64,000 nt of DNA from an uncultured Eubacteriales bacterium (lineage in GTDB: Bacteria; Acidobacteriota; Aminicenantia; Aminicenantales; Aminicenantaceae). The position numbers and the translations under genes were made by a program. The stretch's first letter is position 1, and each line of letters opens with the position of its first letter. Location: contig CAYSCS010000101.1 in assembly GCA_964429695.1 (NCBI GenBank), forward strand, positions 19,901-83,900. Direction: 5' to 3'. This document shows, piece by piece, positions 14,446-57,176 of the stretch. The notes beneath the pieces are model-generated. The model was not told the DNA's origin, ran no database searches, and saw nothing but the letters and a program-made list of their open reading frames with translations.

Positions 14446-15333
14446 ATGAAGAGAAGAGATTTTCTGAAAGAAATAGCCATAGGAAGCCTGATGATGAAGT
14501 TTAATCCCTCTCTTCTTAAGAGCGAAAAAAACAGTCCCGACCTTTCTCTCGTGCAGGGAGAATCTCCCTCTGAAATAACCAAGGAAGCCGTGGCTTTGCT
14601 GGGGGGTATGACACGCTTCGTTTCCCGAGGAGACGTAGTCCTCATCAAACCGAATATTGGCTGGGATAGAACACCTGAACAGGGGGCCTGTACCAACCCC
14701 GCTGTTGTTTCCACCCTCGTTGAGCTCTGCTTGAATTCTGGCGCTAAGGAGGTGAAGGTTCTTGACAACACCATCAACCCCCCTCAAAAAACGTACGCTC
14801 GTTCTGGAATCGCAGAAGCGGCACAAAAAGCTGGAGCCAAGGTTCTTTTTGCCAATCCCCATCGCTTAAGAAAAATGGCCATCGGTGGAGAATGGCTCAA
14901 GGAATGGGAGGTTTTCACAGATTTTGTGGAAGCAGACAAGCTCATCAATGTCCCTGTGGCCAAGACGCACAGCCTCTCAAGGGTTACGCTGGGGATGAAG
15001 AACTGGCTGGGTGCAATTGGCGGAAAGCGCAATCAGCTCCATCAGAACCTCGACCCTGCCATGATTGACCTTGCCGCCTTTTTCAATCCCTGTCTTACAG
15101 TCCTCGATGCCTACAGGATTCTCGTCCGAAACGGCCCTCAAGGAGGACGCCTTTCCGATACTCAATTATTCAAGAAAGTGGTGGCAGGTGTGGATTATGT
15201 GGCTGTGGATTCTATGGGAGCAACCTTCTTCGGCATAAGGCCTGAAGAACTGCGGTACCTTGAACTGGCAAAGCAAAAGGGACTGGGAGAGAACAATCTG
15301 GAGAAATTGAAAATTGAAGAAAAGAAGGTCTAA
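14446..15333 (+). CDS. DUF362-domain protein with a twin-arginine (TAT) signal peptide
   Basis: The N-terminus 'MKRRDFLKEIAIGSLMM' fits the TAT RRxFLK consensus. A DUF362-like core reads 'VLIKPNIGWDR...NVPVAKTHS'. The gene lies 5 nt after the amidase. Confidence 0.7.
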   Translation: MKRRDFLKEIAIGSLMMKFNPSLLKSEKNSPDLSLVQGESPSEITKEAVALLGGMTRFVSRGDVVLIKPNIGWDRTPEQGACTNPAVVSTLVELCLNSGAKEVKVLDNTINPPQKTYARSGIAEAAQKAGAKVLFANPHRLRKMAIGGEWLKEWEVFTDFVEADKLINVPVAKTHSLSRVTLGMKNWLGAIGGKRNQLHQNLDPAMIDLAAFFNPCLTVLDAYRILVRNGPQGGRLSDTQLFKKVVAGVDYVAVDSMGATFFGIRPEELRYLELAKQKGLGENNLEKLKIEEKKV

Positions 15334-16906
15334 AAAATATCAAATCATCCAGACACTCCGCATTCTCAGTCAAATACTTTTCTTTGGAATCTTTCTCTAC
15401 CTTCTAGTGAATACCCACTTCCCTGGAGAAGATTACATTGGAAAAGTGGAGATCTTCTTCCACTTCGACCCTCTCCTCGCTCTGGTTACTATCCTCGCTT
15501 CAAGAACCGTCTTCCTTTCTTTTATCTTCGCTTCGCTCACTCTAATCCTCACCTTTGTCATGGGCAGAGTCGTTTGTGGCTGGGTCTGTCCTCTGGGGTC
15601 AATCCACCAGTTCTTTTCTTTTCTCTTCAAGAAATCAAGGCTCCTTCGTCCTAAAAAAGCCAAAGATAACCACACAGTCTGGAAATACTATCTTTTAGCC
15701 ATACTCCTTGTCTGTTCTTTGCTAACCCTTGATCTTGTGGGCATCCTTGACCCCCTTTCCCTCCTCTACCGCTCCTTTACCATAAGCATCTTGCCTTCTC
15801 TCGATTACAGCTTCAATGCCTTTCTCAACCTCTTATACAAAATAAAGCTAAGCTCTTTTGGAGACAATCTCGTCCAGTTTTTTAAGACTCTGGCCATAAA
15901 TCCCATCTTCCACCAGGGTTTTTTCATCGGAATAATCTTCATCAGCCTTGTCCTTCTGAATGTTGTTCGAGAGAGATTCTGGTGTCGTTTCCTCTGTCCT
16001 CTTGGTGCCTTTCTCGGAATCTGCGCGAGATGGAATGTACTCAAGCTCCGAATTGACGAGAAAAAATGCATCGAATGTGGTCTTTGCAACCTTCATTGTG
16101 AGACTCAGGCAAACCCCTTCCCCGAGGATGAATGGAGAAGTCCAGAATGCGTTTATTGTTTCACCTGTAGTTCCCTATGCCCCACAAGCGCCATCTCCTT
16201 TCCGATGAAATCTGGACCTGAGGAAATTCAAAAAATCAACTTCTCGCGAAGAAGGCTAATTTTAACCTCTCTTCTGGGGGTTATTGCCACGCCTTTCTTC
16301 AGGTTAAGCCCTGGAGCAAGGCGAGCCTCCCCGAGACTAATTCGCCCCCCCGGTGCTCTTTCAGAAAGCACTTTCCTCCAGAAATGCGTCAAATGCGGAC
16401 AATGCATGAAAGTCTGCCCCACCAATGCTCTCCAGCCCGCTCTGGGCGAGGCAGGTGCAGAGGGAATCTGGACTCCTATTCTCGTACCCAAGATTGGTTA
16501 TTGTGAATACTATTGCTCCCTCTGCTCCCAGGTTTGCCCTACAGGAGCGATACAGGAGCTCACAGTGGAACAGAAGCTCCAGACGAAGATAGGAACGGCT
16601 TGGGTTGATAAAAACCGCTGCATACCTTATAACCTGGGGACTCCCTGCATAGTCTGTGAGGAACATTGTCCAACTTCGCCCAAAGCGATAAAGCTGGTAG
16701 AGACAGCAGTCAAGACCCCTGAAGGCTCGATTAAAACTCCCAAGGCGCCTCATGTGGACCAGAAGATCTGCATAGGATGTGGGATATGTGAGAATAAATG
16801 CCCTGTGGTAGATTCCCCTGCCATCTATGTGACGAGTGTCGGAGAAAGCCGTTCAGAGCAGAATCAGATGCTCCTCGACCTCCTCATCGAAGAAGAGATC
16901 CAGTGA
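15314..16906 (+). CDS. Membrane-bound poly-[4Fe-4S] ferredoxin (NapH/MauN/CcoG-like) with ~6 Cys4 motifs and N-terminal transmembrane helices
   Basis: The TM region carries 'VCGWVCPLG' and 'FWCRFLCPLG', the NapH-family CxxxCP pair. These are followed by CIECGLCNLHCE, CVYCFTCSSLCP, a further hydrophobic helix, then CVKCGQCMKVCP, CSLCSQVCP, CIVCEEHCP and CIGCGICENKCP. It overlaps the DUF362 gene by 20 nt. Confidence 0.8.
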   Translation: MKKRRSKKYQIIQTLRILSQILFFGIFLYLLVNTHFPGEDYIGKVEIFFHFDPLLALVTILASRTVFLSFIFASLTLILTFVMGRVVCGWVCPLGSIHQFFSFLFKKSRLLRPKKAKDNHTVWKYYLLAILLVCSLLTLDLVGILDPLSLLYRSFTISILPSLDYSFNAFLNLLYKIKLSSFGDNLVQFFKTLAINPIFHQGFFIGIIFISLVLLNVVRERFWCRFLCPLGAFLGICARWNVLKLRIDEKKCIECGLCNLHCETQANPFPEDEWRSPECVYCFTCSSLCPTSAISFPMKSGPEEIQKINFSRRRLILTSLLGVIATPFFRLSPGARRASPRLIRPPGALSESTFLQKCVKCGQCMKVCPTNALQPALGEAGAEGIWTPILVPKIGYCEYYCSLCSQVCPTGAIQELTVEQKLQTKIGTAWVDKNRCIPYNLGTPCIVCEEHCPTSPKAIKLVETAVKTPEGSIKTPKAPHVDQKICIGCGICENKCPVVDSPAIYVTSVGESRSEQNQMLLDLLIEEEIQ

Positions 16907-16910
16907 TTAT

Positions 16911-17900
16911 TCATTCAGCAAGGACTTTTTTGAGTTCCTCTTTGAGATAGGGGATAACTTGAAAGAGATCCCCTACAATTCCAAAATCTGCAACCTTGAA
17001 GATTGGTGCCTCAGGATCCTTATTCACGGCCACGATGTGTTTGGAAGAAGACATCCCCGCTAGATGTTGTATTGCCCCTGAAATTCCGAAAGCAAGATAA
17101 AGGTTTGGGGAGACGGTTTTCCCCGTCTGACCAACCTGATGCTGATGGTCAATCCAGCCCGAATCCACTGCAGAGCGCGAGGCTCCTACGGCTGAATGAG
17201 GTAAAATTGCAGCAAGCTCTCTGAGTAATTGAAAATTTTCTGGGCCCTTCATCCCTCTCCCTCCGCTTACCACGATATCTGCCTCGGTGACATCAAGCTC
17301 TGCCCCCTCTTCCTTCAAGACCTCGAGTACTTTTGCCTTTATCTGCTCTTCCTCTACCTTCACCTCTTTCTTGATTATCTCTCCTTGAAATTCTCGAGGC
17401 TCAAGAAGAGGAAAAACATTCGGTCTCAGGGTCGCCATCTGCGGCATGCTCTTTAGCCTGAATGTTGCCAGAGCCTTGCCGGCAAAGATAGGCCTCACAA
17501 CTTCAAGCCTTCCTTCTTTTATTTCAGTCTTTATGCAGTCAGAAGCGAGTCCAACTCCAAGCTTGGCGGCAAGTCGAGGTGCGAGGTCCTTGCCCATGGA
17601 ACTAGCAGAAAAGAAGATAATCTCTGGTTTTATTTCTTCAAACAGAGAAAAAAGAGCCATGGAATATCCCTGAGCTGAGTAGCTGCGGAGGAGCGGGTTC
17701 TCTAAGAGGTAAACTTTGGAAGCCCCATAGCGGAAGACTTCCGGAGCAAGGGAATCTAAATTATCTCCCACCATTACTCCGTAGACTTCAACTCCAAGTT
17801 CTTCTCCTCTTCTCTTCGCTTCAGAGAGAGCCTCAAAAGATGACTTCTTTATTTTTTCTTCTCTAATTTCTATAAAAACAGTAAGCATTATTCCCTCCAA
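16911..17900 (-). CDS. etfA: Electron transfer flavoprotein alpha subunit
   Basis: The C-terminal FAD-binding region reads '[39 protein letters not shown]'. Confidence 0.9.
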
Positions 17901-18683
17901 TCAGATAATCTTCGCCTCGTTATGCAAGTATTCGACAAGTTTTCGGGCTGCCTCCTGAGGTTCATCCTTGATTACCCTCCCTCCCTGCCTTGGTGGTGGA
18001 GACTCTAATTTCCTAAGTTCAAGTAGAGGCTGAACCTCTTCCTCTCTAAGTTCTAAATCCGCGAGAGAGATGATGGGGATTTCCTTTTTCTTAGCCAGCA
18101 TGATGCCCTTCAAGGTTTCATAGCGAGGTTCATTCAATCCTTTCTGGGCACTGATTACCGCCGGAAGCGAAAAAGCAACCTTTTCTAATGCTCCCTCAAT
18201 TTCGCGATGGGCGATTCCTCTTTCCCCCTCTATCTCAACTTTGGTGACCACCGTCACTTGCGGCAACTGGAGCAGCTCGGCGACCATCGCCGGAACCTGG
18301 GAGTTGTCAGCCCCCACAGATTGTTTTCCGAAGAAAAGCAAATTGAATTGAGGGAATTTTTTCTGAACCGTGCGTGCGATTATCCTTGCCACCCTCAACC
18401 CGTCATAAGACTCAGCCTTTGTATCTTTCACAAGCAGAGCCTCATCCACTCCCATCGCCAGACATTTCTTGAGCACCACGAGGGCTTCTTCTGGACCAAC
18501 CGAGACGGCGGTTACCTTCCCTCCTTTTGCCTCTCGGAGGCGAAGAGATTCTTCGACTGCATACTCATCGTAAGGACTGATGATGAAATTCAAGCCTTCT
18601 TCGATGATAGAATTTGTTTCATGATTTATGCGTATCTTTGCTTCAGTATCAGGAACCCTTTTTACAAAGACTATAATTTCCAA
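17901..18683 (-). CDS. etfB: Electron transfer flavoprotein beta subunit
   Basis: 'MEIIVFVKRVPDTEAKIRI...' has EtfB-like similarity. It lies directly upstream of and abuts etfA. Confidence 0.9.
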   Translation of the reverse strand: MEIIVFVKRVPDTEAKIRINHETNSIIEEGLNFIISPYDEYAVEESLRLREAKGGKVTAVSVGPEEALVVLKKCLAMGVDEALLVKDTKAESYDGLRVARIIARTVQKKFPQFNLLFFGKQSVGADNSQVPAMVAELLQLPQVTVVTKVEIEGERGIAHREIEGALEKVAFSLPAVISAQKGLNEPRYETLKGIMLAKKKEIPIISLADLELREEEVQPLLELRKLESPPPRQGGRVIKDEPQEAARKLVEYLHNEAKII

Positions 18684-33360: not shown

Positions 33361-34497
33361 TTATAGCCATTTCTTATAGACCCGATAGATTTTATAAATT
33401 TTTCCCCCCATTCTTTCCATCTCGGCTCTTACTCGTAGATTTGACTCCATTTCATGATGGGTATCGATAACCTCAAAGCCAGCCTCTTGAGCCGAGCGAA
33501 TCATCTTCACACCCATGAGCACATCAATCCCTAGTCCTCTGTATCTTTCTTTAATCGCCCCTAAGAGCAAATCCAGCTGTTTAGTTTTCTTAGCAGCCCT
33601 AAGGATTTTTAGAAAGCCAAACGGGAAAAGCCTTCCCCTTGCTCTCTGGATACCTTGGGTAAAATCTGGAAGGCCGACGATAAAAGCAATAATTTCCTCA
33701 TCTTTTTTTACTATTTTCACAAAGCGAGGGTCAATCAAAGGCAAATATCTCCTAGCTAAGTCTTCCATCTCCCTTTCATCAAGAGGTGTATAACCGTAAA
33801 TGTTGCTCTGGGTATAACATTCATTCATCAGCCCGAGCACAGGCTTAATCCATTGTTTGAGGTCTTTTTTCTTCCGAAATTCAAGGATTTCAAAATTTCC
33901 CCTCTTCTTTATTCTTTCATAAATCTTAAGGTAGAAATCAGGGACCTGTTTAGGAACTTCTAATTTGTAAACAAAATAATCCACATCCTTTGTGTAACCC
34001 ATTTTTTCTACGAATCTTGGCATCCAATCAAAATTATGGTAAGTGGCTATTGTAGCCCGATTTTCAAAACCCTTGATCAGAAAGCCCTCAGGATCCTGGT
34101 CTGAAAAACCGTAAGGCCCGACGATTTTCTCCATTCCTCTCTCTTTTGCCCAGTTCTCAACCTTTTCCAGTAAAGCTCTAACCACCTCCTCATCTTCCCA
34201 TGTCTCAAGATAGCCAAATCTCGCTGTTTTCTCCTTTTTGTAACTGTTGTAGCGATTATTTATAATCCCCATTATCCTTCCCACTACTTGCTCCTCTCTC
34301 AAGGCAAGAAGAAGGGTGGTTTCACAATAGGAAAAGGCCTTATTCTTTTTTGGGTTGAAATATTTCCACTCGTCAAAATAAAGAGGAGGAACCCATGTCT
34401 TGTGAGTGGCGTGGATTTTCTCCGGGAGATAAATGAACTCCCTCAAATCCTTGCGGCTTTTTACTTCTTTGATTGTGATCTTCATCGAGCTCCTCAA
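33361..34497 (-). CDS. Conserved hypothetical protein, possibly a two-domain GNAT/FemAB-like acyltransferase
   Basis: 378 aa. The layout 'LREFIYLPEKIH...WVPPLY' plus an acyl-CoA N-acyltransferase-like core resembles FemAB-related or BioF2-like acetyltransferase families. This is weakly supported by eye. Confidence 0.35.
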   Translation of the reverse strand: MRSSMKITIKEVKSRKDLREFIYLPEKIHATHKTWVPPLYFDEWKYFNPKKNKAFSYCETTLLLALREEQVVGRIMGIINNRYNSYKKEKTARFGYLETWEDEEVVRALLEKVENWAKERGMEKIVGPYGFSDQDPEGFLIKGFENRATIATYHNFDWMPRFVEKMGYTKDVDYFVYKLEVPKQVPDFYLKIYERIKKRGNFEILEFRKKKDLKQWIKPVLGLMNECYTQSNIYGYTPLDEREMEDLARRYLPLIDPRFVKIVKKDEEIIAFIVGLPDFTQGIQRARGRLFPFGFLKILRAAKKTKQLDLLLGAIKERYRGLGIDVLMGVKMIRSAQEAGFEVIDTHHEMESNLRVRAEMERMGGKIYKIYRVYKKWL

Positions 34498-35217: not shown

Positions 35218-36537
35218 ATGAGACTTGCCACATTTCCCCGTGGTATTTATCCTCCTGAATTAAAAGAGAGTACAGAAAACAAGCCCCTTGAAAAAATGCC
35301 TCCGCCAGAAAGGGTGATGATTCCTCTCCTCCAGCACTTCGGCAATCCTGCTCAGCCTTTGGTCAAGAAGGGAGATGAAGTTTATCTAGGCCAAAAAATA
35401 GGAGAAGGGAAATCTCTCTTTTCTTCTTCCGTCCACGCAAGTGTTTCCGGAAAAGTTCTCGCCGTTGAAGACTTCCCCCATCCTCTTGGTAGCCCTGTAC
35501 TCAGCGTAAGTATAGCCAATGACGGGAAAGATCGCACCGAAGAAGGGCCTAAGGACTCAAAGGATCCCTTCACCCTTACACCAGATGAGATTCGGAATAG
35601 AGTTAGGGAGGCAGGGATTGTCGGTCTTGGGGGCGCAGCTTTCCCAACCTCTGTAAAACTTACTCCGCCAAAAGACAAACCCATTGATACAGTAATCATC
35701 AATGGGTGTGAATGTGAACCATTCCTTACCTCTGATTACAGGCTGATGATTGAATACCCAGATGACATCCTTAATGGAGCAGAGCTGATTCGGATTGCAT
35801 GCGGGGCACAGAAAATAATCATCGGGATTGAGGATAACAAGAAAAAGGCCTTTGAAATCTTATCCCCAAAGAGCAAAAGACCCGAAGTGAAGGTTGTGCT
35901 CTTAAAGACAAAATATCCTCAGGGAGCAGAAAAAAACCTCATCTTCGCCCTCCTTAGACGAGAGGTTCCGAGAGGGGGCCTTCCCTTTGATGTCGGAGTT
36001 GTGGTCCAGAATGTGGGCACCTCCAAAGCAATCTGGGAGGCTGTCAGTAAAGCCAAGCCTCTCTACGAAAGAGCGCTTACAGTCTCAGGAGATGCTGTCA
36101 GAGAACCCAAGAACCTCTTGGTTCGGATTGGGACACCTTTCAAGAATGTATTAGATTTCTGCGGGGGATTGAATGACAACGCTTCCTTGGTAGTAATGGG
36201 AGGCCCGATGATGGGGGTTTCACAGGGCCTTTTGGAAGTCCCTGTGGTAAAGGGGACTTCTGGAATTTTAGCCTGGGAAAAGGCCCCTTCCTTTATTGAA
36301 TTTCCCTGCATCCGTTGTTCCCGATGCATCTCTCATTGCCCCATGGGCCTTGTTCCCACGCAAATCATAAAATACGTGAAATATGATGACTTAGAAAACG
36401 CCGAGGCCTGGGGGGTGCTCGATTGTATTGAATGCGGTTGTTGCCAATATGTCTGCCCGGCAAAAATTCCTCTTGTTCACTGGCTTCGAATCGGAAAGTC
36501 AAGAATCTTCAGCATCAGAAAGAAAAAGAAGGAATGA
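35218..36537 (+). CDS. rnfC: Rnf electron transport complex subunit C (NADH-binding, 2x[4Fe-4S])
   Basis: Carries 'SGKVLAVEDFPHPLG' and 'GIVGLGGAAFPTSVKL'. The C-terminus carries CxxCxxCxxxCP x2. Confidence 0.92.
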   Translation: MRLATFPRGIYPPELKESTENKPLEKMPPPERVMIPLLQHFGNPAQPLVKKGDEVYLGQKIGEGKSLFSSSVHASVSGKVLAVEDFPHPLGSPVLSVSIANDGKDRTEEGPKDSKDPFTLTPDEIRNRVREAGIVGLGGAAFPTSVKLTPPKDKPIDTVIINGCECEPFLTSDYRLMIEYPDDILNGAELIRIACGAQKIIIGIEDNKKKAFEILSPKSKRPEVKVVLLKTKYPQGAEKNLIFALLRREVPRGGLPFDVGVVVQNVGTSKAIWEAVSKAKPLYERALTVSGDAVREPKNLLVRIGTPFKNVLDFCGGLNDNASLVVMGGPMMGVSQGLLEVPVVKGTSGILAWEKAPSFIEFPCIRCSRCISHCPMGLVPTQIIKYVKYDDLENAEAWGVLDCIECGCCQYVCPAKIPLVHWLRIGKSRIFSIRKKKKE

Positions 36538-37517
36538 TGAGTAAGGTAGAGAAAACCTTGATCTTACAATCTTCTCCACATCTGAGGGATAGAGAATCTG
36601 TTCCAAGAATCATGTATACTGTGGTTTTAGCACTTGTGCCCCCTATTGCAGCGTCTCTCTATTTTTTCAGATTGAGGGCTGCGGTCCTCCTCTTCTCCTG
36701 TGTTCTTGCTTCTCTAACGACAGAGGCTCTTTTCCTCTGGCTGAGAAAGAAACCCTTCTTCTTCATCTTGGATGGCTCTGCAATCATAACCGGACTCCTC
36801 CTGGCGATGACCCTCCCCCCATCCATTCCCCTCGACATTGCAGTTCTAGGTGCGTTTGTAGCCATCTCGCTGGGCAAACAGGTTTTTGGAGGGCTGGGCT
36901 ATAATATTTTTAATCCTGCTCTCGTAGGGCGCGCTTTTCTGCAGAGTGCCTTTCCTGTGGCCATGACAACCTGGATTCCACCTGTCACCCTGAAGGTAGA
37001 TACGGCCACCTTCGCCACCCCCCTCGGGAATCTAAAGTTCCAACATGCTCTTTCTCTCGGCACCCTCACTCCTTTAAAGGAACTTTTCTGGGGAAATATT
37101 GGCGGATGTTTGGGTGAAACTTCTGCCTTCGCCATTCTCCTTGGAGCTTCATATTTAATCTACCGTCGAACCATTGACTGGCGTATTCCCTTGGGAATAA
37201 TAACCTCTCTCTTTATCTTCACAGGGGCGCTCTGGATTGCTAGTCCCTTTAAATTCGCCCCTCCTCTCTTCCATCTCTTCGCAGGAGGGCTTCTTATAGG
37301 AGCTTTCTTTATGGCTACTGACATGGTCACCTCTCCTCTCCATAAGACGGGAATATGGATATATTCGGTTGGCATAGGATTAATCATCTCTCTAATTCGT
37401 CTCTTTGGTGGTTTCCCCGAAGGAGTCATGTATTCCATCCTTTTCATGAACGCCTTTGTTCCACTCTTAAATCGATTTACCAGACCACGAATTTTGGGAG
37501 AAAGAAGAAGAAAATGA
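36534..37517 (+). CDS. rnfD: Rnf complex subunit D (membrane, FMN-binding)
   Basis: A polytopic membrane protein with RnfD/NqrB-like similarity. The probable start is 'MMSKVEK', overlapping the rnfC stop by 4 nt; the six-frame ORF begins earlier, at 36432. Confidence 0.88.
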   Translation: MMSKVEKTLILQSSPHLRDRESVPRIMYTVVLALVPPIAASLYFFRLRAAVLLFSCVLASLTTEALFLWLRKKPFFFILDGSAIITGLLLAMTLPPSIPLDIAVLGAFVAISLGKQVFGGLGYNIFNPALVGRAFLQSAFPVAMTTWIPPVTLKVDTATFATPLGNLKFQHALSLGTLTPLKELFWGNIGGCLGETSAFAILLGASYLIYRRTIDWRIPLGIITSLFIFTGALWIASPFKFAPPLFHLFAGGLLIGAFFMATDMVTSPLHKTGIWIYSVGIGLIISLIRLFGGFPEGVMYSILFMNAFVPLLNRFTRPRILGERRRK

Positions 37518-38119
37518 GTCTCTCAGCAAGAATAATTCTAGTTCTTACCTGTGTGGGTCTTCTCTCAGGTGGATTTCTTGCCACGGTGGGACTCTTAACC
37601 AAAGAGAGAATAGCCCTAAATAGAGAGAAAGAGATAGAAGAAGCCATCCTCGCGGTAGTCCCTGGCGCAAGTTCCAGCCAAAAATTATATGAAGGAGAAG
37701 GGCTTACCATTTACGCTGGAAAAGATGCTTCTGGAGTATTAAGAGGTTATGCCATACATGCTTCAGGAGTAGGCTTTCAGGATAAAATTGTGCTTATGTT
37801 TGGAACTAATCCCGCCCTTACCAAGATAAGAAAACTTGCCGTTCTTGAACAGAAAGAGACCCCTGGCCTGGGCGCAAAAATAACAGATGAGGAATCTTTC
37901 TTGAGATACTGGGAAGAGAAAGATTGCACAACAGAACTCAAGCTCCGCAAGCCTGCAGCAAGTTCTCCACAAGAACTCTCCCCTTCCGAAGTCAACACCA
38001 TTACCGGAGCTACAATCTCATCTGAGGCCGTTTTAAAAACAGTAAATCTTTCCCTTAAGCTCCTGAAGGGGTTGCAATTGGAGCGAGAGCTCTTAGGCGA
38101 GGAAAAAGATGAAGAATAG
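37514..38119 (+). CDS. rnfG: Rnf complex subunit G (FMN-binding, periplasmic)
   Basis: An N-terminal TM anchor reads 'MSLSARIILVLTCVGLLSGGFL'. The flavinylation motif 'TITGATISS' is present. The probable start overlaps the rnfD stop; the six-frame ORF begins at 37355. Confidence 0.85.
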   Translation: MSLSARIILVLTCVGLLSGGFLATVGLLTKERIALNREKEIEEAILAVVPGASSSQKLYEGEGLTIYAGKDASGVLRGYAIHASGVGFQDKIVLMFGTNPALTKIRKLAVLEQKETPGLGAKITDEESFLRYWEEKDCTTELKLRKPAASSPQELSPSEVNTITGATISSEAVLKTVNLSLKLLKGLQLERELLGEEKDEE

Positions 38120-38720
38120 GACTCTTGCAGAAGATTTTTATAAAGGACTTTGGCAAGAGAACCCTATCTTCCGTCAGTTGCTCGGAATGTGCCCCACCCT
38201 TGCTGTGACCAATGCCGTAATCAATGGGATTGCTATGGGATTGGCAGTCGCCTTTGTGTTAATCTTCAGCTCAGTGATTATTTCTTCCCTAAAAAAAATC
38301 TTTCCACCTCAAGTTAGAATTGCAAGTTACATTGTCATCATCGCCACTTTCGTCACCATCGCCGATCGCTTTCTTCAAGCCTTCTTCCCTTCGATTTCTA
38401 AAAGCCTGGGACCATACGTCCCTCTTATAGTAGTAAATTGCATCATACTTGCTCGACAAGAGGCATTCTCTTCAAAGAACCCTGTCGGTCGCTCTTTCAT
38501 CGATGCCTTGGGTATGAGCGCCGGGTTTATGCTTGGACTTCTCATCCTCAGCTCTATAAGAGAAATCCTGGGTTCAGGGACTTTTCTGGGCTATCAAGTC
38601 CTGGGGAGCTGGTTTAAACCCTGGTTGATCATGATCCTTCCTCCCGGAGCCTTCATGACTCTGGGCATCCTCCTTGCCCTTGCCATTCAAATTGAGAAAA
38701 AGTTAAAGTCAAGGAGTTAA
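38109..38720 (+). CDS. rnfE: Rnf complex subunit E
   Basis: A polytopic membrane protein carrying 'LLGMCPTLAVTNA', the RnfE/NqrD signature. Confidence 0.9.
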   Translation: MKNRTLAEDFYKGLWQENPIFRQLLGMCPTLAVTNAVINGIAMGLAVAFVLIFSSVIISSLKKIFPPQVRIASYIVIIATFVTIADRFLQAFFPSISKSLGPYVPLIVVNCIILARQEAFSSKNPVGRSFIDALGMSAGFMLGLLILSSIREILGSGTFLGYQVLGSWFKPWLIMILPPGAFMTLGILLALAIQIEKKLKSRS

Positions 38721-38724
38721 AGAA

Positions 38725-39300
38725 GTGGATATCTTCACCATCTTTGTCTCATCCATCTTAATCAACAACTTCGTGCTCCACTACTTCCTTGGAATCTGTC
38801 CTTTTCTTGGGGTGAGTAAAAAACTTGATTCTGCTTTTTCCATGGGTCTTTCTGTAACTTTTGTGATGACCATCACCGCCTCTGTTTCCTGGCTCATAAA
38901 CCACTTGATCCTCATCCCTTACAATCTGGATTACCTCCAGATTGTCTCCTTCATCCTGGTCATCGCCTCGCTTGTTCAGCTGGTTGAAATGTTTATCCGT
39001 AAAATGAGCCCTCCGCTTTACCAGGCAATGGGAATCTACCTCCCCCTGATCACCACGAATTGTTGCATCATGGGTCTTGCCCTCCTCATCGCCCTCAAAG
39101 ATTATGGGTTCATCGAAGCCGTTGTCTTTGGGGTTGGGTCGGGAATTGGCTTTACTCTAGCCATACTGTTGATGGCAGGGATTAGAGAGCAACTTGAAAT
39201 CTCGGACTTACCAGAGCCTCTCAGAGGAGCTTCAATTGCTCTTATCGTTGCAGGAATTATGGCCCTTGGCTTTCTCGGATTTTCGGGAATGATAAAATGA
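38725..39300 (+). CDS. rnfA: Rnf complex subunit A
   Basis: A polytopic membrane protein carrying 'FLGICPFLGVSKK', the RnfA/NqrE signature. Confidence 0.9.
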   Translation: MDIFTIFVSSILINNFVLHYFLGICPFLGVSKKLDSAFSMGLSVTFVMTITASVSWLINHLILIPYNLDYLQIVSFILVIASLVQLVEMFIRKMSPPLYQAMGIYLPLITTNCCIMGLALLIALKDYGFIEAVVFGVGSGIGFTLAILLMAGIREQLEISDLPEPLRGASIALIVAGIMALGFLGFSGMIK

Positions 39301-40106
39301 CGAATCTCCTGGTCCCAATCTTAACCATGGGAGGGCTCGGCCTCCTCTTCTCTGTTGGTCTTGTCTTTGCCTATAAGAAACTCCGGGTAGAGGAAGACCC
39401 CAGGGTGGAAAAAATCGCTGAAATACTCCCTCAGGCAAACTGCGGGGCATGTGGTTTTTCAGGTTGCCGCAATTTTGCCGAAGCAGTGGTAAAAGGGTCT
39501 GCTTCTCCATCCAGCTGTCCTGTTGGAGGAGAACAGGTTGCAAAGCAAATTGCTGAGACCCTCGGTATCTCAGCTGGAGAAGTGATTAAGAAAGTAGCAA
39601 GAATCCATTGTCGGGGCACGTGGCAAGCAGCTAAACCCAGAGGAAATTACGCAGGCATCCCTACCTGCCTTGGAGCTCAGCTAATAGGAGGGAACAAGCT
39701 TTGTAGCTACGGATGTCTGGGCCTCGGCGACTGCGTGAGGGCATGTCTTTTTGACGCCATGTTCATGAATGAAGATGGCCTGCCAGAGGTAAGAGAAGAT
39801 AAATGTACAGCCTGTGGAAAGTGCGTCGAGGCCTGCCCGCGAAACATCATTGAACTCCATCCTCTCTCTCACAAAATAATTGTCTTCTGTCGTTCCAAGG
39901 ATAGAGGGGCTGTGTCAAAAAAAGCGTGTCACAATGCCTGCATTGCCTGCGGAATATGTGCCAGGGCAGCCCCAGAAGCAATCATAATGGAAAACAACCT
40001 TGCCAAAATAATTGATTATAATAAAATTAAAGATGAGCAGGTTCTTGAAATAGAAAAATGTCCAACAGGAGCAATAGGAAGGCTGGAGAAGAGGGATGAA
40101 GGATAA
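39297..40106 (+). CDS. rnfB: Rnf complex subunit B (ferredoxin-type)
   Basis: An N-terminal TM helix is followed by 'CGACGFSGCRNFAEAV' and multiple CxxCxxCxxxCP motifs. Confidence 0.88.
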   Translation: MTNLLVPILTMGGLGLLFSVGLVFAYKKLRVEEDPRVEKIAEILPQANCGACGFSGCRNFAEAVVKGSASPSSCPVGGEQVAKQIAETLGISAGEVIKKVARIHCRGTWQAAKPRGNYAGIPTCLGAQLIGGNKLCSYGCLGLGDCVRACLFDAMFMNEDGLPEVREDKCTACGKCVEACPRNIIELHPLSHKIIVFCRSKDRGAVSKKACHNACIACGICARAAPEAIIMENNLAKIIDYNKIKDEQVLEIEKCPTGAIGRLEKRDEG

Positions 40107-40539
40107 AGCAAAAGTTATAAGCATCGAAGGGGAATTCTCACGGGTAGAAGTCCAATGCCTCTTCACGGCGTGCGAGAGATGCTCAGCACGCAATCTATGC
40201 AGAGGAGATGACCCAGATTCCAGGCTCTTGCTCGTTAAAAATCCTCTTGGGGCAAAACCTGGAGACATGGTGACAATCGAGGTTCCTGAAGACTCTTACA
40301 CTAGAAGTTTAATCTCTATCTTCGGCTTCCTGCTTTTATCTTCTCTTCTGGGAATGGGACTAGGCTTTTTGTCTTCACGGTTGGTTGTTTTTTCTCCCGA
40401 GATATTGAGCATCGCGGGGCTTCTCTCTGGCCTCTTCATCTGTGGCTTTTTACTTTTAAACCGTTTTCGAAAAAAAAACTTACTCACCCTTTACCCTGTT
40501 ATAATTTCAATCTTAAATAAAGGAGAGGACAATGGATAG
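40096..40539 (+). CDS. rseC: RseC/MucC family protein (SoxR-reducing system / sigma-E positive regulator-like), associated with Rnf
   Basis: A Cys-containing N-terminus ('VQCLFTACERCSARNLCRG') is followed by two TM helices. This is the typical RseC arrangement, located after rnf/rsx genes. Confidence 0.7.
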   Translation: MKDKAKVISIEGEFSRVEVQCLFTACERCSARNLCRGDDPDSRLLLVKNPLGAKPGDMVTIEVPEDSYTRSLISIFGFLLLSSLLGMGLGFLSSRLVVFSPEILSIAGLLSGLFICGFLLLNRFRKKNLLTLYPVIISILNKGEDNG

Positions 40540-41266
40540 ACGTTCCTTTCTGGGTTCAATCATCCTTACTCCGCTCTTATCCCATTTTTTAAATGCAGAT
40601 GAGAGACAACCTTCAACTCTCAGCCTCCATTTAATATCCGATTTTCCGCATGATTTTTTGCCCCAGATTCTTTATGACTTAAGAGAGAGAGGTATCAATT
40701 TCGGCCGCAGAGTTTGGTTTCCGGAAAATACTCCTTATAGAATGCAGCTCGAAAAATCGTTTTCTGCTAACGGCTGGGAGGTAGCTAAAAACACCTCAAC
40801 TGCCTCTTTTATCCTCAATCATAATCTCTTAAGCAGAGAAAGCCTTCCCTCCTTTTCCCTTGTTGAAAAGGGAAGGGTGAAAGACATAAGGTCAGGAAAA
40901 CTAATTCATCTCTGGAAAGAAATGGTCAAAAGGAATCCCTCTTCTTCTCTCTTAACCACTGCTACTTTAAAGAAAGGTTTTCCTTCTTTATCTTCAGGAG
41001 AGGAGGCTACCGTATTCTTCATGGGGAGAAAAAGAGCAATTTTATCTCTTAAAATAGACAAGATTTATCTCTTCCGCCATAAGCAACATGAAATCTGTGT
41101 AAAAATTGAGAAAAGGAAGGCATGGGTAGAATCATCTTCCTGCTCCCAAAAAATCTGCTGCCATACCCCTCCTGCCTCCCTTGAGGGAGAGCGCATCATC
41201 TGCGCTCCCAATCATTTCATCCTGGAGATAAACCCCTCTCCTTCAATAGATACATCAGTTGGATAA
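40532..41266 (+). CDS. Hypothetical secreted protein with a C-terminal Cys cluster, embedded in the rnf-apbE operon
   Basis: 244 aa with an N-terminal signal-like 'MDRRSFLGSIILTPLLSHFLNA'. The C-terminus reads 'SSSCSQKICCHTPPAS...ICAPNHF'. It overlaps both neighbouring genes by 8 nt, and no known domain is recognised. Confidence 0.5.
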   Translation: MDRRSFLGSIILTPLLSHFLNADERQPSTLSLHLISDFPHDFLPQILYDLRERGINFGRRVWFPENTPYRMQLEKSFSANGWEVAKNTSTASFILNHNLLSRESLPSFSLVEKGRVKDIRSGKLIHLWKEMVKRNPSSSLLTTATLKKGFPSLSSGEEATVFFMGRKRAILSLKIDKIYLFRHKQHEICVKIEKRKAWVESSSCSQKICCHTPPASLEGERIICAPNHFILEINPSPSIDTSVG

Positions 41267-42203
41267 AAAATCATCTCTCCTTATAGTTTTTTTCCCTTTA
41301 TTCCTTATCATCTTTTATTTATCCTGCAAAAGGGAAGTGGCTTGGCATTCCTCCACCCTTCTTTTTTTCGATACGGTGTGCGAAATTAAACTTCTTTGCA
41401 CTCCTTCTCAATTCAAGAACGGCGAGAAAGTTGTGGGAAATTTGTTTGAGTCGATTGAAAAAGAATTTTCACCAGAATCCTACAACAATTCTTCAGATTC
41501 ACTAATAAAATTATTCAAGATCGCACTCAAGATTCATCATGACTCTCAAGGCTCTTTCGATATTAGTGTCGGAGCTCTTTCGAAGGTCTGGGGCTTTAAG
41601 AATAAAGCATACAGAGTCCCTCATCTCTTTGAGATTGAGGAAACGCTCAAGCATGTGGGAATGGAAAAAATAAAAATAGATGAAAATTCTCTCTGGCTCC
41701 CTGAGGGTATGGAGCTTGACTGGGGAGGAATTGCAAAGGGGTATGCCGTCGACTTGGCTTCTCAAGAACTTAGGAAAAGGGGAATCTTAAATGGATTTAT
41801 AAACGCAGGAGGAGACCTTTTTTGCTGGGGGCAAAACCCTGAGCACAAGCCGTGGAAGATAGGAATTAAACATCCTCGCGAACCTGGTTTTTTAGGTATA
41901 CTCTCGATTTCCAATTTAGGCGCTTCAACAACCGGCGACTACCAGCGCTATTTTGAGGTCAAGGGAAAAAGATATCATCATGTGTTTAATCCATTTACGG
42001 GCTTCCCTTCCTCTTTTTATCAAAGTGTAACGGTAGTCGGACCTGAAACGACGATATGCGACGCTCTTTCTACGGCTCTCTTTGTTTCGCCTGAACAAGA
42101 AAAAATAATCCGCCTCTATCCCGAATATGGAGTGATTATTGTCGATTCGAAGGGAAAACTTAAAACGTTAGGGAAAAAATATCCCTTTTCACCCCTCGGT
42201 TAG
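41259..42203 (+). CDS. apbE: FAD:protein FMN transferase (flavin transferase ApbE)
   Basis: Carries 'DWGGIAKGYAVD', 'GASTTGDYQRYF' and 'TVVGPETTICDALSTALFV', all ApbE signatures. Confidence 0.9.
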   Translation: MDKKSSLLIVFFPLFLIIFYLSCKREVAWHSSTLLFFDTVCEIKLLCTPSQFKNGEKVVGNLFESIEKEFSPESYNNSSDSLIKLFKIALKIHHDSQGSFDISVGALSKVWGFKNKAYRVPHLFEIEETLKHVGMEKIKIDENSLWLPEGMELDWGGIAKGYAVDLASQELRKRGILNGFINAGGDLFCWGQNPEHKPWKIGIKHPREPGFLGILSISNLGASTTGDYQRYFEVKGKRYHHVFNPFTGFPSSFYQSVTVVGPETTICDALSTALFVSPEQEKIIRLYPEYGVIIVDSKGKLKTLGKKYPFSPLG

Positions 42204-43300
42204 ATTTTCATGGGCATTAATACATATAAATACTGAATTTCATCGTCAACTTCTGGCTTCATCATCACGGCACTATTCTCATCTTTAATCTCAACTACAA
42301 CTCTTTCGTTTTTAACTGTATTCAAGAAATCAAGGAGGTATTGAGAATTAAATCCTATTTCCATCTCCTTCCCTTCATAATCTACTTGTATTCTATCATG
42401 AGCTTCTCCCATTTCCGGACTCGAAGAGAAGAGGTCAACTTGTTTTTTTGAGAGGAAAAGTTTAATGCCTTTTGACCTCTCGGATGAAAGAAGAGAAACC
42501 CTTTTTATTGAGCTAGCCATTTCATCTCGAGAAAAAGAAAGCCTATTAGGATTATCCCGCGGCATGACAGCCTCATAATTAGGAAACTTCCCTTCAATCA
42601 TTCTTGAAATTAATGTCTTATTTTTTACCCTGAAAAAAAGATTGTTTTCGTCCAGGTCAAACTCAATATCCTCTCCATCTAGTTTTTTTATTTCTCCCAA
42701 GGTTTTTTTGGAAACTATTCCTCTCAATTCACCTCCTATCTTCAATCCTTCCAGCTCCTTTTTTGTGTACGATAATCTATGGCCATCCGTACTAACCAGC
42801 TCTATCGATTTATCCTTGATTATCATCAACGCGCCGTTTAGATAATATCGCTGCTCTTGAGTAATAGCATAATAAACCCTATCTATCATCTCCTTGACTT
42901 CTTCTAAGGGAAGAGATATTCCTTTCTCAAACCTGGGCTCAGGAATTTGGGGATAGTCTTCATGTGGTAAACACAGGATCTTAAATTCGCTTGCTCCGGA
43001 TGTAATTTCCATTCTCAACCCTTCAATTTCTTTAAAAGTTATCAACTGTCCATCAGGAATTGATCTCACTATTTCAAATATTTTCTTTCCTGAAACCGTC
43101 AATGCCCCTTCATCTTCTATCCTGGCCGGGAAATGGGTTATCATTCCTACTTCAAGGTCTGTACCTACCATCTCAACCTCATCTTTCTTAACTTTCAACA
43201 GAATATTGGCAAGAATGGGCATTGTATTTTTCTTCTCCACTATCCCCTGTAAAATTTGGAGCTCACCTACTATTTCCTCTTTATTGATTGAAAAAATCAT
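42200..43300 (-). CDS. dnaN: DNA polymerase III beta subunit (sliding clamp)
   Basis: 366 aa, beginning 'MIFSINKEEIVGELQILQGIVEKKNTMPILANILLKV'. Confidence 0.95.
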   Translation of the reverse strand: MIFSINKEEIVGELQILQGIVEKKNTMPILANILLKVKKDEVEMVGTDLEVGMITHFPARIEDEGALTVSGKKIFEIVRSIPDGQLITFKEIEGLRMEITSGASEFKILCLPHEDYPQIPEPRFEKGISLPLEEVKEMIDRVYYAITQEQRYYLNGALMIIKDKSIELVSTDGHRLSYTKKELEGLKIGGELRGIVSKKTLGEIKKLDGEDIEFDLDENNLFFRVKNKTLISRMIEGKFPNYEAVMPRDNPNRLSFSRDEMASSIKRVSLLSSERSKGIKLFLSKKQVDLFSSSPEMGEAHDRIQVDYEGKEMEIGFNSQYLLDFLNTVKNERVVVEIKDENSAVMMKPEVDDEIQYLYVLMPMKI

Positions 43301-43418: not shown

Positions 43419-44750
43419 TCAGTAAATCTGGCTGATCAAACTGTTTATTTCTTTGTTGAATTCCGGGTCTTTAGACCTGAGCTTTTCAATTTTTCTAATG
43501 CTGTGTAAGACTGTTGTGTGATGTTTTCCACCGAATTTTCTACCTATTTCAGGCAGAGAACTTTTACTCAACTCCTTGCACAAATACATGGCAATTTGTC
43601 GGGGAAAAGCAACTTTTGGAGAATTGTTTCTAGATTTCAATTCAGAAAGCTTAATTTTAAATCTATGACAAATCACCTTCTGTATTTTTTCCACAGTCAC
43701 AGAAACTTCTGTTTCATCAAGCAATCCCTTTAAGGCTTCTTTAGCCAGTTCAAGGTCAATTGGTTCTCCTCTTAGAGAGGAAAAGACGATTACTCTCCTT
43801 AAATACCCCTCTAACTCTCTTATGTTCGAATGAACTTTATCTGCAATGTAAAGAGCCACGCTTTCAGGGAGGTTGATTCCTTCTAACTCAGATTTTTTCT
43901 TAAGAATGGCAATTCTTGTCTCAATGTCTGGAGGTTTTAAATCTGCAATCAAACCCCATTCGAATCTTGAACTGAAACGTTCTTCAAGGTTGGGAATCTC
44001 TTTTGGAGGGCAGTCTGAGGAGATGACAATCTGTTTCTGATTATCATAAAGATGGTTAAAGGTGTGAAAAAATTCTTCTTTCGTTCTTTCTCTTCCAGAA
44101 AGGTAGTGGATATCATCCATCAACAGAACATCCACTTCCCTGTACTTTTGTCTGAAATCGAGAATTTTTCCGTATTGAAGATGATTAATTAAATCGTTCA
44201 TAAATTTTTCTGTAGTGATGTAAAGAATTTTGAGACGCTGATTATTTTTCAAAGTCAGGTGGCCAATTGCATTCATTAGATGGGTTTTGCCCAGTCCTGC
44301 ACCTCCGTAAATAAAAAGGGGGTTGTATGACTTAGCCGGGTTTTTTGAGACCGCCAAAGAGGCTGCATGGGCAAACTGATTGCAGGAGCCGACGACGAAA
44401 TTTTCGAAGGTGTAATTGGGATTAAGATTGGGATTTAGAATTGACCCCTGTTTCGAGCGACGCTCAAGGGGGGAGACGCGCATAAATGAACTCGATTTTT
44501 CATCAAATATGTAATGGATATCAAAGACAGCACCAAGAATTTCTTTTGAACAGGAATTGATAAGCTCAGAATAATGGAAGGAAAGCCAATCTTTGAAATA
44601 TGAGTTAGGGACTTTGATGTACAGAACATCCTTTTCTTTTCCTATGTAAGAGGTTGGCTCAAACCAGGTTTCGAAGCTCTGTTGGTCAATTTTTTTCCTT
44701 ATGGCTTCCACAATTTGAAGCCAAATGTTTGATTTTTCCTCAGATTCCAT
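43419..44750 (-). CDS. dnaA: Chromosomal replication initiator protein DnaA
   Basis: Carries AAA+ 'GGAGLGKTHL' and 'LLMDDIHYLSG'. The C-terminal DNA-binding region 'IAMYLCKELSKSSLPEIGRKFGGKHHTTVLHSIRKIE' is present. Confidence 0.95.
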   Translation of the reverse strand: MESEEKSNIWLQIVEAIRKKIDQQSFETWFEPTSYIGKEKDVLYIKVPNSYFKDWLSFHYSELINSCSKEILGAVFDIHYIFDEKSSSFMRVSPLERRSKQGSILNPNLNPNYTFENFVVGSCNQFAHAASLAVSKNPAKSYNPLFIYGGAGLGKTHLMNAIGHLTLKNNQRLKILYITTEKFMNDLINHLQYGKILDFRQKYREVDVLLMDDIHYLSGRERTKEEFFHTFNHLYDNQKQIVISSDCPPKEIPNLEERFSSRFEWGLIADLKPPDIETRIAILKKKSELEGINLPESVALYIADKVHSNIRELEGYLRRVIVFSSLRGEPIDLELAKEALKGLLDETEVSVTVEKIQKVICHRFKIKLSELKSRNNSPKVAFPRQIAMYLCKELSKSSLPEIGRKFGGKHHTTVLHSIRKIEKLRSKDPEFNKEINSLISQIY

Positions 44751-56258: not shown

Positions 56259-57114
56259 TTCGTTCGCCAAGATAAACCTTGGGCTTGAGGTGCTCAAGAA
56301 GAGGGAAGATGGCTATCATGAGATCCGGACCATTTTCCAGAGCATTAGTCTATGTGATTCTATGGAATTTCAACTGACTGAAGACGGTCGCCTTGAGCTC
56401 AGAGGTGATGAGGAGAGTATTTCGTGGGGGAAAGAAAATTTAATTTATAAAGCCGCATCTCTTCTCAAAGAAAAATATGGTGTAGTGCAGGGTGTTTCCA
56501 TTCATGTAAAAAAGAGCATCCCCCCAGGAAAGGGACTGGGAGGAGGAAGCAGCAATGCAGCCATGACCCTTTTTGCCTTGAACAGACTCTGGAGTCTTGG
56601 TTTATCCAAGAATGAATTGATGAAAATGGGGAGCCTTCTGGGCGCAGATGTCCCTTACTTTTTTGAAGGGGGACTTTGTTTGGGTTTGGAAAAAGGAAAT
56701 AAAGTTTTTCCCTTGGAAGATCTCCGCGAAATGCCTTGTGTTCTTGTTTTTCCCCCCTTCGCTATCTCAACACGTTTCATCTATAACGAACATCGCCCCT
56801 CCTTGACTTCAGAAGGTAAAGAAAGTAAAATAACTAAGTTTTTATCTACCAAAGAGATTGGCTCACTTGAAAATAATTTAGAAGAGACTGTTTTTAATTT
56901 TTATCCTCGGCTCAAAGAAATAAAGAGCCTTTTGCTTGGCCAAGGTGCAGAGCTTTCGTTGCTAAGTGGGACAGGCTCAGCTATTTTTGGTTTGTTCAGG
57001 CAAAGAAAGAGAGCAGAAGAAAGCTTGAGAGAGTTAGAGAGGCATTATCCGTCGTTACTCGTAGAGACAATTTCTCGAAAAAAATACTTTGAGCATATAC
57101 TTGCTGGGGAGTAG
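56248..57114 (+). CDS. ispE: 4-diphosphocytidyl-2-C-methyl-D-erythritol kinase
   Basis: Carries 'FAKINLGLEV' and the GHMP kinase motif 'PPGKGLGGGSSNAA'. Confidence 0.92.
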   Translation: MRISSFAKINLGLEVLKKREDGYHEIRTIFQSISLCDSMEFQLTEDGRLELRGDEESISWGKENLIYKAASLLKEKYGVVQGVSIHVKKSIPPGKGLGGGSSNAAMTLFALNRLWSLGLSKNELMKMGSLLGADVPYFFEGGLCLGLEKGNKVFPLEDLREMPCVLVFPPFAISTRFIYNEHRPSLTSEGKESKITKFLSTKEIGSLENNLEETVFNFYPRLKEIKSLLLGQGAELSLLSGTGSAIFGLFRQRKRAEESLRELERHYPSLLVETISRKKYFEHILAGE

Positions 57115-57176
57115 CCAAGCGGAAAGGCAGCGGACTTTGGATCCGCCATGCGGAGGTTCGAATCCTCCCTCCCCAG
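57105..57176 (+). tRNA. tRNA-Gln (anticodon UUG)
   Basis: Manual fold of 72 nt. Acceptor stem TGGGGAG/CTCCCCA (U1:A72) with discriminator G73. D-stem GCC/GGC. Anticodon stem GCGGA/TCCGC with loop CTTTGGA, giving anticodon TTG. Variable loop CATGC. T-arm GGAGG-TTCGAAT-CCTCC. No CCA is encoded. It overlaps the ispE stop codon. Confidence 0.85.

Follow-up and report, generated by a model that had tools for sequence, protein, structure and literature searches.

An EetA-like NusG_II-domain protein encoded between rseC and apbE at the end of an Aminicenantes rnf operon

The subject of this report is gene X, a label for the open reading frame (ORF) at 40532-41266 of the forward (+) strand in a stretch of 64,000 nucleotides (nt) of contig CAYSCS010000101.1, hereafter the window. 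X encodes a conserved two-domain protein, the C-terminal half of which is an EetA/NusG_II domain, and in related genomes the gene lies next to rseC at the end of rnfCDGEAB, next to apbE, or next to both. In the window the order is rnfCDGEAB-rseC-X-apbE, with nearly all genes upstream of X joined by short overlaps. The protein is best read as the form that EetA takes in Aminicenantes; in Firmicutes, EetA is the NusG_II/DUF1312 protein whose gene keeps company with apbE, eetB and rnf genes. A more specific proposal, to which we give about an even chance of being correct, is that X is an EetA-type accessory factor exported to the periplasm by the twin-arginine translocation (Tat) system and acting in the ApbE-dependent flavinylation of Rnf. 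X is not a new kind of system; the association of eetA, eetB, apbE and rnf is already published, and the PF07009 annotation of the relatives of X is already public.

The original prediction, made from the letters of the window, recognised no known domain in the product of 244 amino acids (aa). Residues 154-234 (40991-41233, +) turned out to match Pfam family PF07009 (NusG_II, formerly DUF1312) with 42.9 bits (E 6e-11), above the gathering score of 29.6 and as the sole Pfam family recovered at E <= 1. The same family is already annotated on 18 of 18 X homologues, and relatives are named 'NusG domain II-containing protein' at NCBI; an NCBIfam scan of the whole of X gave nothing at E <= 1. An AlphaFold2 model built with 17 homologues shows two domains at a mean predicted local distance difference test score (pLDDT) of 80, and the predicted fold of the C-terminal one matches that of solved DUF1312 domains. 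These solved relatives, namely 4ESN (Ruminococcus gnavus), 4OBI (E. faecalis EF3258), 3LD7/2KPP (Listeria innocua Lin0431) and domain II of Aquifex aeolicus NusG (1M1G), correspond to the single domain only. Although the name NusG_II sounds transcriptional, the family is linked to flavin trafficking and flavinylation, so that the profile search does not lead away from redox chemistry or assembly. X was rejected as a NusG transcription factor because only the domain-II model matches, NGN and KOW are absent, and the remainder consists of a signal peptide and an unrelated alpha/beta domain; NusG proper, in contrast, is a cytoplasmic transcription factor that contains NGN and KOW. A profile search with the C-terminal domain of X returned mostly database entries of 104-160 aa. 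The idea that these represent a short sister family (P0078-P0100) was discarded, the entries being contig-end cuts or internal-Met calls (near residue 131) of the same 244-aa gene.

The cysteine cluster of X (C204, C209, C210 and C224) lies wholly inside the PF07009 match. All four residues noticed earlier are confirmed; however, C210 varies among relatives. C204 (41141-41143), C209 (41156-41158) and C224 (41201-41203; all +), the last within G-E-R-I-I-C-A-P-N, are invariant in 72 relatives of X, and the same three cysteines and Pro226 never vary when 19 diverse NusG_II proteins are aligned. The motif SSSC-SQKIC...GERIICAPN fits the family signature C-x4-C ... G-x-x-I-x-C-[LA]-P-[NH]. Among the solved relatives, 4ESN keeps three of three cysteines, Aquifex NusG two, EF3258 two and Lin0431 one. 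The cluster had been taken as a hint of a metal, Fe-S or disulfide function; being a generic EetA signature that is only partly kept in solved structures, it is not a specific sign of a metal or Fe-S site. NqrM (DUF539) invites a comparison here. It is a single-span membrane protein, and its four cysteines have been proposed to serve the Fe-S centre of NqrD/E. Like X it is small, contains cysteines and is encoded by an accessory gene that adjoins apbE behind the structural genes; apbE and nqrM, the NQR maturation genes, sit downstream of those genes (PMC12174285). It differs from X in showing no sequence or domain similarity, and X has three conserved cysteines on a beta domain and no transmembrane helix. 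A reading of X as an NqrM homologue was rejected, since neither Pfam nor NCBIfam gave an NqrM/DUF539 match at E <= 1.

A broader version of the same idea, in which X is a metal, Fe-S or thiol-redox factor for Rnf assembly, for example an NqrM-like one for the intramembrane [2Fe-2S] centre of RnfA/RnfE and perhaps working with RseC, strikes us as very improbable indeed. The invariance of the three cysteines in both alignments speaks for it, as do a Tat signal compatible with cofactor insertion in the cytoplasm, the adjacent RseC, which binds an Fe-S cluster in E. coli (PMC11729352), and the Cys-rich NqrM encoded next to apbE in nqr operons (PMC12174285). Yet the same signature is carried by EetA proteins of Clostridiales loci that have apbE and eetB as neighbours and lie outside rnf operons; Listeria, which has EetA too, is not known to possess Rnf or NQR; and most solved relatives have lost one or two of these cysteines. 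The site would offer three ligands where four are usual, and the lack of similarity to NqrM/DUF539 counts here as well. Cytoplasmic loading of a cluster would moreover be ruled out for Firmicutes EetA, because its plainly anchored domain should cross the membrane unfolded.

X is a genuine gene. Its ATG at 40532 is preceded by the ribosome-binding site AAGGAGAGG, a Shine-Dalgarno-like sequence at 40520-40528 (+) within the 3' end of rseC, and the ATG overlaps the rseC stop by 8 nt (ATGGATAG, 40532-40539). There are 72 distinct full-length relatives at 30-43% identity in which the length (237-245 aa), the RR motif, the three cysteines and the C-terminal tail are all kept; such conservation is far beyond chance. 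A spurious ORF was considered and rejected. An 8-nt overlap had been predicted with both neighbours. It stands on the rseC side and, on the apbE side, only if apbE starts at TTG 41259. This start gives ApbE a lipoprotein-type signal (...FYLSC), which is lost with the alternative start at 41337 in one public gene call; the ApbE homologue of a related locus (L012) also has a lipobox-like FISC.

The distribution of X was followed in a scan that covered one genome per GTDB species and yielded 74 loci. Almost all X loci come from metagenome-assembled genomes (MAGs) of Aminicenantes/Aminicenantia, and two Clostridiales loci carry ordinary EetA; the X family appears to be restricted to Aminicenantes. 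Contigs deposited as 'uncultured Eubacteriales bacterium' are numerous among those with Aminicenantes-type synteny and Rnf proteins of 60-80% identity (L008, L009, L012, L014-L017 and others); the label looks like a placeholder or misassignment. In 58 of the 74 loci (class A) rnfCDGEAB and then rseC stand directly upstream of X; in 15 of them apbE adjoins X, in 16 it follows at a distance of 4-6 kb, 19 show no apbE in the flank covered, and 8 do not allow a decision. Twelve loci (class B) have no rnf or rseC upstream, and apbE is adjacent in all 12. The remaining four loci are unclassifiable, and the overall count of loci with apbE adjacent to X is 29 of 74. Most class-B proteins fall in one clade of a neighbour-joining tree. 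Three MAGs (CAYGBC01, SOIA01 and JAGLRY01; loci L020/L012, L027/L042 and L063/L068) hold both classes on different contigs, with one X paralogue after rnf-rseC and the other before apbE, bin contamination or strain mixing being possible. A copy of X can thus accompany apbE where apbE lies elsewhere.

Ascertainment bias was removed by a search of metagenome contigs based on RnfB. All 7 of the 7 loci with RnfB of at least 64% identity and enough downstream DNA carry rseC-X, which argues that X is a constant part of the Aminicenantes-type rnf operon; in five loci with RnfB of 42-52% identity, rseC, X, EetA and EetB are all absent within 3.9 kb. Functional ties of X to Rnf and ApbE, proposed at the outset from the overlaps, are borne out by the gene order in the 74 loci and by this independent sample, and homologues do adjoin rnf-rseC, apbE or both. 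In related genomes a sugar-catabolic island separates X from apbE or precedes the X-apbE pair (L012 1300-7700; L009 8744-14309; L045 8814-13122), and this insertion explains the distance of 4-6 kb to apbE in two class-A loci examined. Its genes encode 3-keto-disaccharide hydrolase/TIM-barrel proteins and Gfo/Idh/MocA oxidoreductases, among the latter one that clearly bears a twin-arginine signal, and, depending on the locus, an FGGY kinase, a major facilitator superfamily transporter or DoxX.

Such constancy raises the question whether X belongs to the Aminicenantes Rnf complex itself as a stoichiometric structural subunit on the periplasmic side, an extra one as RnfH is in some bacteria. We regard this as unlikely. 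The gene is translationally coupled within the rnf operon, follows rnfB-rseC in the class-A loci, stays with rnf-rseC when apbE is distant or unseen and is present in every close RnfB relative of the second sample. On the other hand, the class-B loci pair X with apbE where neither rnf nor rseC is nearby, three MAGs have one copy at each place, and the EetA domain occurs beside apbE and eetB in Clostridiales loci outside rnf operons. Listeria, too, encodes an EetA but is not known to have Rnf, and we know of no published Rnf structure that contains such a subunit.

What is known of EetA, which takes its name from the Listeria locus, frames the preferred reading of X as its Aminicenantes version. 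Rivera-Lugo et al. (mBio 2023, PMC9973259) annotate NusG_II (PF07009) as EetA in their Data Set S1. The same work describes EetB (PF07456, 'Hpre_diP_synt_I'/'Gx transporter') as an energy-coupling factor (ECF) substrate-binding subunit that exports flavin adenine dinucleotide (FAD) for the extracytosolic flavin transferase ApbE/FmnB. There, eetA colocalises with eetB in 3,328 of 4,214 eetB-containing genomes, apbE colocalises with eetB in 2,169 genomes and Rnf genes do so in 572 Clostridia genomes; EetA-EetB fusions are found in 14 genomes (PMC9973259). An eetA/B double mutant of L. plantarum is defective in flavin-dependent extracellular electron transfer (EET) (PMC9888254). The statement that a protein in this position is not part of the canonical Rnf description consequently holds for textbook Rnf, but it has to be qualified, since eetB is already reported with eetA and with rnf at the frequencies just given (PMC9973259). 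A search of the literature for a link between NusG domain II and ApbE or flavinylation gave nothing useful, the link coming via PF07456; in the literature searched, no description was found of the two-domain Aminicenantes form with a Tat signal or of its position between rseC and apbE.

X and the EetA proteins of the Listeria, Enterococcus and Lactiplantibacillus FLEET locus and of Clostridial rnf/apbE clusters share the PF07009 domain, the predicted fold and the cysteine signature C-x4-C...G-x-x-I-x-C-[LA]-P-N. They also share the company of apbE and rnf, an acidic D-x-[VI]-x tail at the C-terminus and the probable location of the domain outside the cytoplasmic membrane. For Firmicutes EetA this location is suggested by the single N-terminal transmembrane helix, which is preceded by basic residues. 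Identity between X and Clostridial EetA is ~30% over ~90 residues. Several features set the two apart: EetA is a single-domain protein of 115-145 aa with one N-terminal transmembrane helix, whereas X has 244 aa, a Tat-type signal and an extra N-domain of 120 residues found nowhere else, follows rseC and has no eetB neighbour that could be found. EetB itself has no homology to X, nor was its gene found in the vicinity of X; it works in the same functional surroundings (apbE, rnf), usually partnered with EetA. With tblastn (E <= 10), neither the window nor the 8 kb around X in 78 related loci gave a match to eetB, and a Pfam scan of 30 other window ORFs did not find PF07456. The partnership is plain elsewhere: two Clostridiales MAGs have the order degV-apbE-NusG_II-PF07456, an 858-kb metagenomic contig has rnfCDGEAB-NusG_II-PF07456, and another contig has rnfCDGEAB ... 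apbE / NusG_II-PF07456.

The signal-like N-terminus originally ascribed to X, MDRRSFLGSIILTPLLSHFLNA, is present and has the features of a Tat signal. Residues 1-22 (40532-40597, +) comprise MDRRSFLG, a Pro-containing, weakly hydrophobic h-region of ~15 residues and a cleavage-type site L-N-A before D23 (L-A-S before K in most relatives). The segment M-D-R-R-S-F-L-G fits the [ST]-R-R-x-F-L-K-type Tat motif. The family consensus is M[DNE]RRxF[FLI][KQ], with RR in 71 of 72 relatives (KR in one) and F at RR+2 in 72 of 72; Pro14 of the h-region is nearly invariant. Mean Kyte-Doolittle hydropathy over residues 7-22 is 1.35, compared with 2.76 for the Sec-type signal of ApbE, and the pLDDT of the signal peptide is below 55. 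Other clear Tat signals are encoded in related loci, for example SLTRRDILKG on a Gfo/Idh/MocA oxidoreductase. Motif and conservation together make export of X by the Tat system likely, and X is probably extracytoplasmic, in agreement with the first proposal. A lipoprotein reading was rejected, as there is no Cys in the signal.

Between the signal and the EetA domain lies a lineage-specific alpha/beta N-domain of ~120 residues (residues 29-147; 40616-40972, +). It is modelled with pLDDT mostly of 81-93 per 10-residue block, and its invariant residues are I35, P39, P106-S107-F108, D118, R120, W128, S138 and T142. No Pfam match was found for this domain in any of 17 members, apart from scattered single matches at E > 0.05, and no fold relative above noise was found in the PDB. 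A profile of the domain run against 1.84 billion representative proteins recovered ~60 clusters, all of its own family and essentially of 237-255 aa or fragments; one weak match over 29 residues (E 6e-6) in a protein of 5,740 aa was dismissed as spurious. Both the extra domain and the RR motif are found in practically every member of the X family.

This constant pairing is one of the points in favour of a bolder scheme, in which X is a Tat-dependent FAD carrier: the N-domain would bind FAD in the cytoplasm, the folded holo-protein would be exported, and the EetA domain would hand FAD to periplasmic ApbE, replacing the EetB/ECF exporter. ApbE needs extracytosolic FAD, which Firmicutes supply via EetB (PMC9973259), and eetB was not found around X. 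Tat is the route of cofactor-loaded, pre-folded proteins; the NusG_II domain itself should not need it, because Firmicutes EetA uses a plain membrane anchor, and the invariant Asp, Arg, Trp, Ser and Thr of the N-domain could line a ligand site. Nevertheless, a carrier used once and in stoichiometric amounts would be costly, many Tat substrates have no cofactor, other parts of these genomes may encode eetB or a different exporter, and there is no sign of a flavin-binding motif or fold in X. The scheme as a whole is improbable in our view. Its fullest form, in which the EetA domain and a pseudo-substrate tail of the single-use carrier hand the cofactor to ApbE for RnfG and RnfD, appears decidedly so. 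If true, it would constitute a protein-borne route for a flavin cofactor across the membrane and the first biochemical role of an EetA domain.

The C-terminal tail of X, D-T-S-V-G-COOH (41249-41263, +), is invariant and predicted to be disordered (residues 239-244 have pLDDT below 50). The form D-[TA]-x-x-G-stop is found in 72 of 72 relatives, with the family consensus [VI]-D-T-x-I-G, and the tails of Firmicutes EetA are related (D-[AGT]-[VI]-[TSA], such as DGITG, DAVTG and DAVAN). ApbE is an extracytoplasmic FAD:protein flavin mononucleotide (FMN) transferase that flavinylates RnfG and RnfD. The tail consensus aligns with the upstream half of its acceptor sites, [VI]-D-T-A-T-F-A-T in RnfD and [VI]-N-T-I-T-G-A-T in RnfG (VDTATFAT and VNTITGAT in the window), and terminates just before the Ala and the acceptor Thr. 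X itself contains neither [ST]G[AS][TS] nor D-x-x-[ST]-G-[AS]-[TS] nor the RnfD-type D-x-x-T-x-A-T-P-L. It was correctly judged not to be an obvious ApbE substrate, NTITGAT being carried by RnfG, and a canonical substrate role was rejected on account of the missing acceptor motif. Docking of the tail in the ApbE substrate groove as a pseudo-substrate is a tentative and somewhat doubtful possibility.

Taken as an accessory factor in flavinylation, X might work as follows. The twin-arginine N-terminus would send the folded protein via Tat into the periplasm, which would be the compartment of the ApbE lipoprotein and of the flavin-acceptor sites of RnfG and RnfD. There X could act as an adaptor or chaperone that assists covalent FMN attachment by ApbE during Rnf maturation. 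Among the most speculative steps are that the [VI]-D-T-x-I-G-COOH tail mimics the upstream half of the acceptor motif and may enter the substrate groove, and that the N-domain may stand in for the membrane anchor of Firmicutes EetA and for its contact with EetB.

Several observations weigh against this proposal. A clean eetA deletion in Listeria has no EET phenotype (PMC9973259), no activity has been assigned to EetA by experiment, and its role is stated as unknown (PMC9864754, PMC9973259). X is not strictly tied to apbE, since apbE is unseen within the flank or 4-6 kb away in the class-A loci counted above, and gene neighbourhood cannot tell a maturation factor from a structural subunit. The tail has neither the Ala nor the acceptor Thr/Ser, and its likeness to the acceptor sites, 4 of 6 positions, could be a coincidence. 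As for export, the Tat assignment is drawn from motif and conservation, no tatA or tatC was seen among the ORFs scanned in parts of the 64-kb window, and Pfam and NCBIfam scans of X gave no Tat-signal model at E <= 1. The last point counts weakly, because such short profiles are insensitive.

That missing model match, together with an atypical signal in which RR stands at positions 3-4 after almost no n-region and with the translational coupling to rseC, would also fit a protein that is not exported at all, its N-terminus being an uncleaved anchor or a cytoplasmic segment and its site of action the cytoplasmic side, for example with the Cys domain of RseC. We hold this to be highly unlikely, given that M[DNE]RRxF[FLI][KQ] is close to the Tat consensus and is the most conserved part of the N-terminus, that the h-region has neither the length nor the hydrophobicity of a transmembrane helix, and that the homologous EetA domains probably lie outside the membrane.

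The interest of X as an Aminicenantes EetA goes beyond this operon. EetA is widespread and stands beside the extracytosolic flavinylation machinery (with eetB in the 3,328 reference genomes already mentioned; PMC9973259), and the Aminicenantes form parts the EetA domain from EetB and the membrane anchor while keeping the company of apbE and rnf-rseC. It exposes two conserved handles, the Tat signal and a disordered tail that resembles half an ApbE acceptor site. X is thereby a natural experiment that could help to assign a function to EetA. It also bears on the supply of FAD to periplasmic ApbE in diderm bacteria and on the accessory genes (rseC, eetA-like and apbE) that a heterologous Rnf may need.

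The neighbours of X complete the picture of the locus. The first gene of the operon, rnfC (35218-36537, +), has RnfC_N, Complex1_51K and SLBB Pfam domains in homologous loci and is 61-70% identical across loci. It is followed by rnfD (36534-37517, +), with a flavinylation-type site VDTATFATPL at 36996-37019 (+), and by rnfG (37514-38119, +), with an FMN_bind domain in homologues and the canonical ApbE acceptor motif NTITGAT at 37994-38014 (+). The mechanical ORFs of these two genes begin ~100-160 nt too early (36432-36534 and 37355-37514, respectively); ATG 36534, in a 4-nt ATGA overlap with rnfC, and ATG 37514, likewise in an ATGA overlap, are the likely starts because of these overlaps and of lengths that match homologue gene calls (319-326 aa for rnfD). 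Next come rnfE (38109-38720, +) and rnfA (38725-39300, +; 71-85% identity across loci), both with an Rnf-Nqr domain in homologues, and rnfB (39297-40106, +), with FeS and Fer4 domains in homologues.

The gene directly upstream of X, rseC (40096-40539, +), encodes an RseC/MucC family protein (PF04246, RseC_MucC, 57.5 bits) with two predicted transmembrane helices and the N-terminal motif C21-x4-C26-x2-C29-x5-C35. Downstream, apbE (41259-42203, +) is identified by a PF02424 match of 224 bits. Both neighbours have a known tie to Rnf: in E. coli the CX2CX5C part of RseC binds an oxygen-sensitive Fe-S cluster, and RseC and ApbE are needed there together with Rsx/Rnf, while RnfF of Rhodobacter capsulatus is an RseC-ApbE fusion and so shows the two neighbours of X as one Rnf accessory module (PMC11729352). 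Compared by its description, RnfF differs from X in having no NusG_II part and a second Cys motif of CX3CXCX2C, against C-x4-C-x14-C in X.

Some further observations concern the surroundings of the operon. Divergent from rnfC, at 33361-34497 (minus strand), lies the gene of a protein of 378 aa whose sole match, a weak one, is to GNAT acetyltransferases. Where the upstream DNA is long enough, nearly all Aminicenantes loci have it in the same position, at 61-78% identity, and it may be rnf-linked. At 14446-18683 are encoded a DUF362 protein, a 530-aa multi-[4Fe-4S] protein and two ETF-domain electron-transfer flavoprotein subunits, possibly a ferredoxin-linked or bifurcating module that feeds or draws on Rnf. 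On the other side of X, the minimum of cumulative GC skew (~42-44 kb in the window) is near dnaN (42200-43300, minus) and dnaA (43419-44750, minus). As this minimum adjoins dnaN/dnaA, the rnf-rseC-X-apbE operon is probably located beside the chromosomal replication origin; the order polA...rnf...dnaN-dnaA is retained in most related loci.

The ~7.4 kb between 23200 and 30600 contain only three ORFs of at least 120 aa: one for a thioesterase, one for a TatD-type DNase and one of 190 aa with a fragment-like match to S41 peptidases. An Rfam scan of the window found no rRNA or other match there, and the region may consist of decayed or frameshifted genes or of many small genes. The sole Rfam match in the window is a tRNA gene at 57105-57176 (+), between a GHMP kinase gene and prs.

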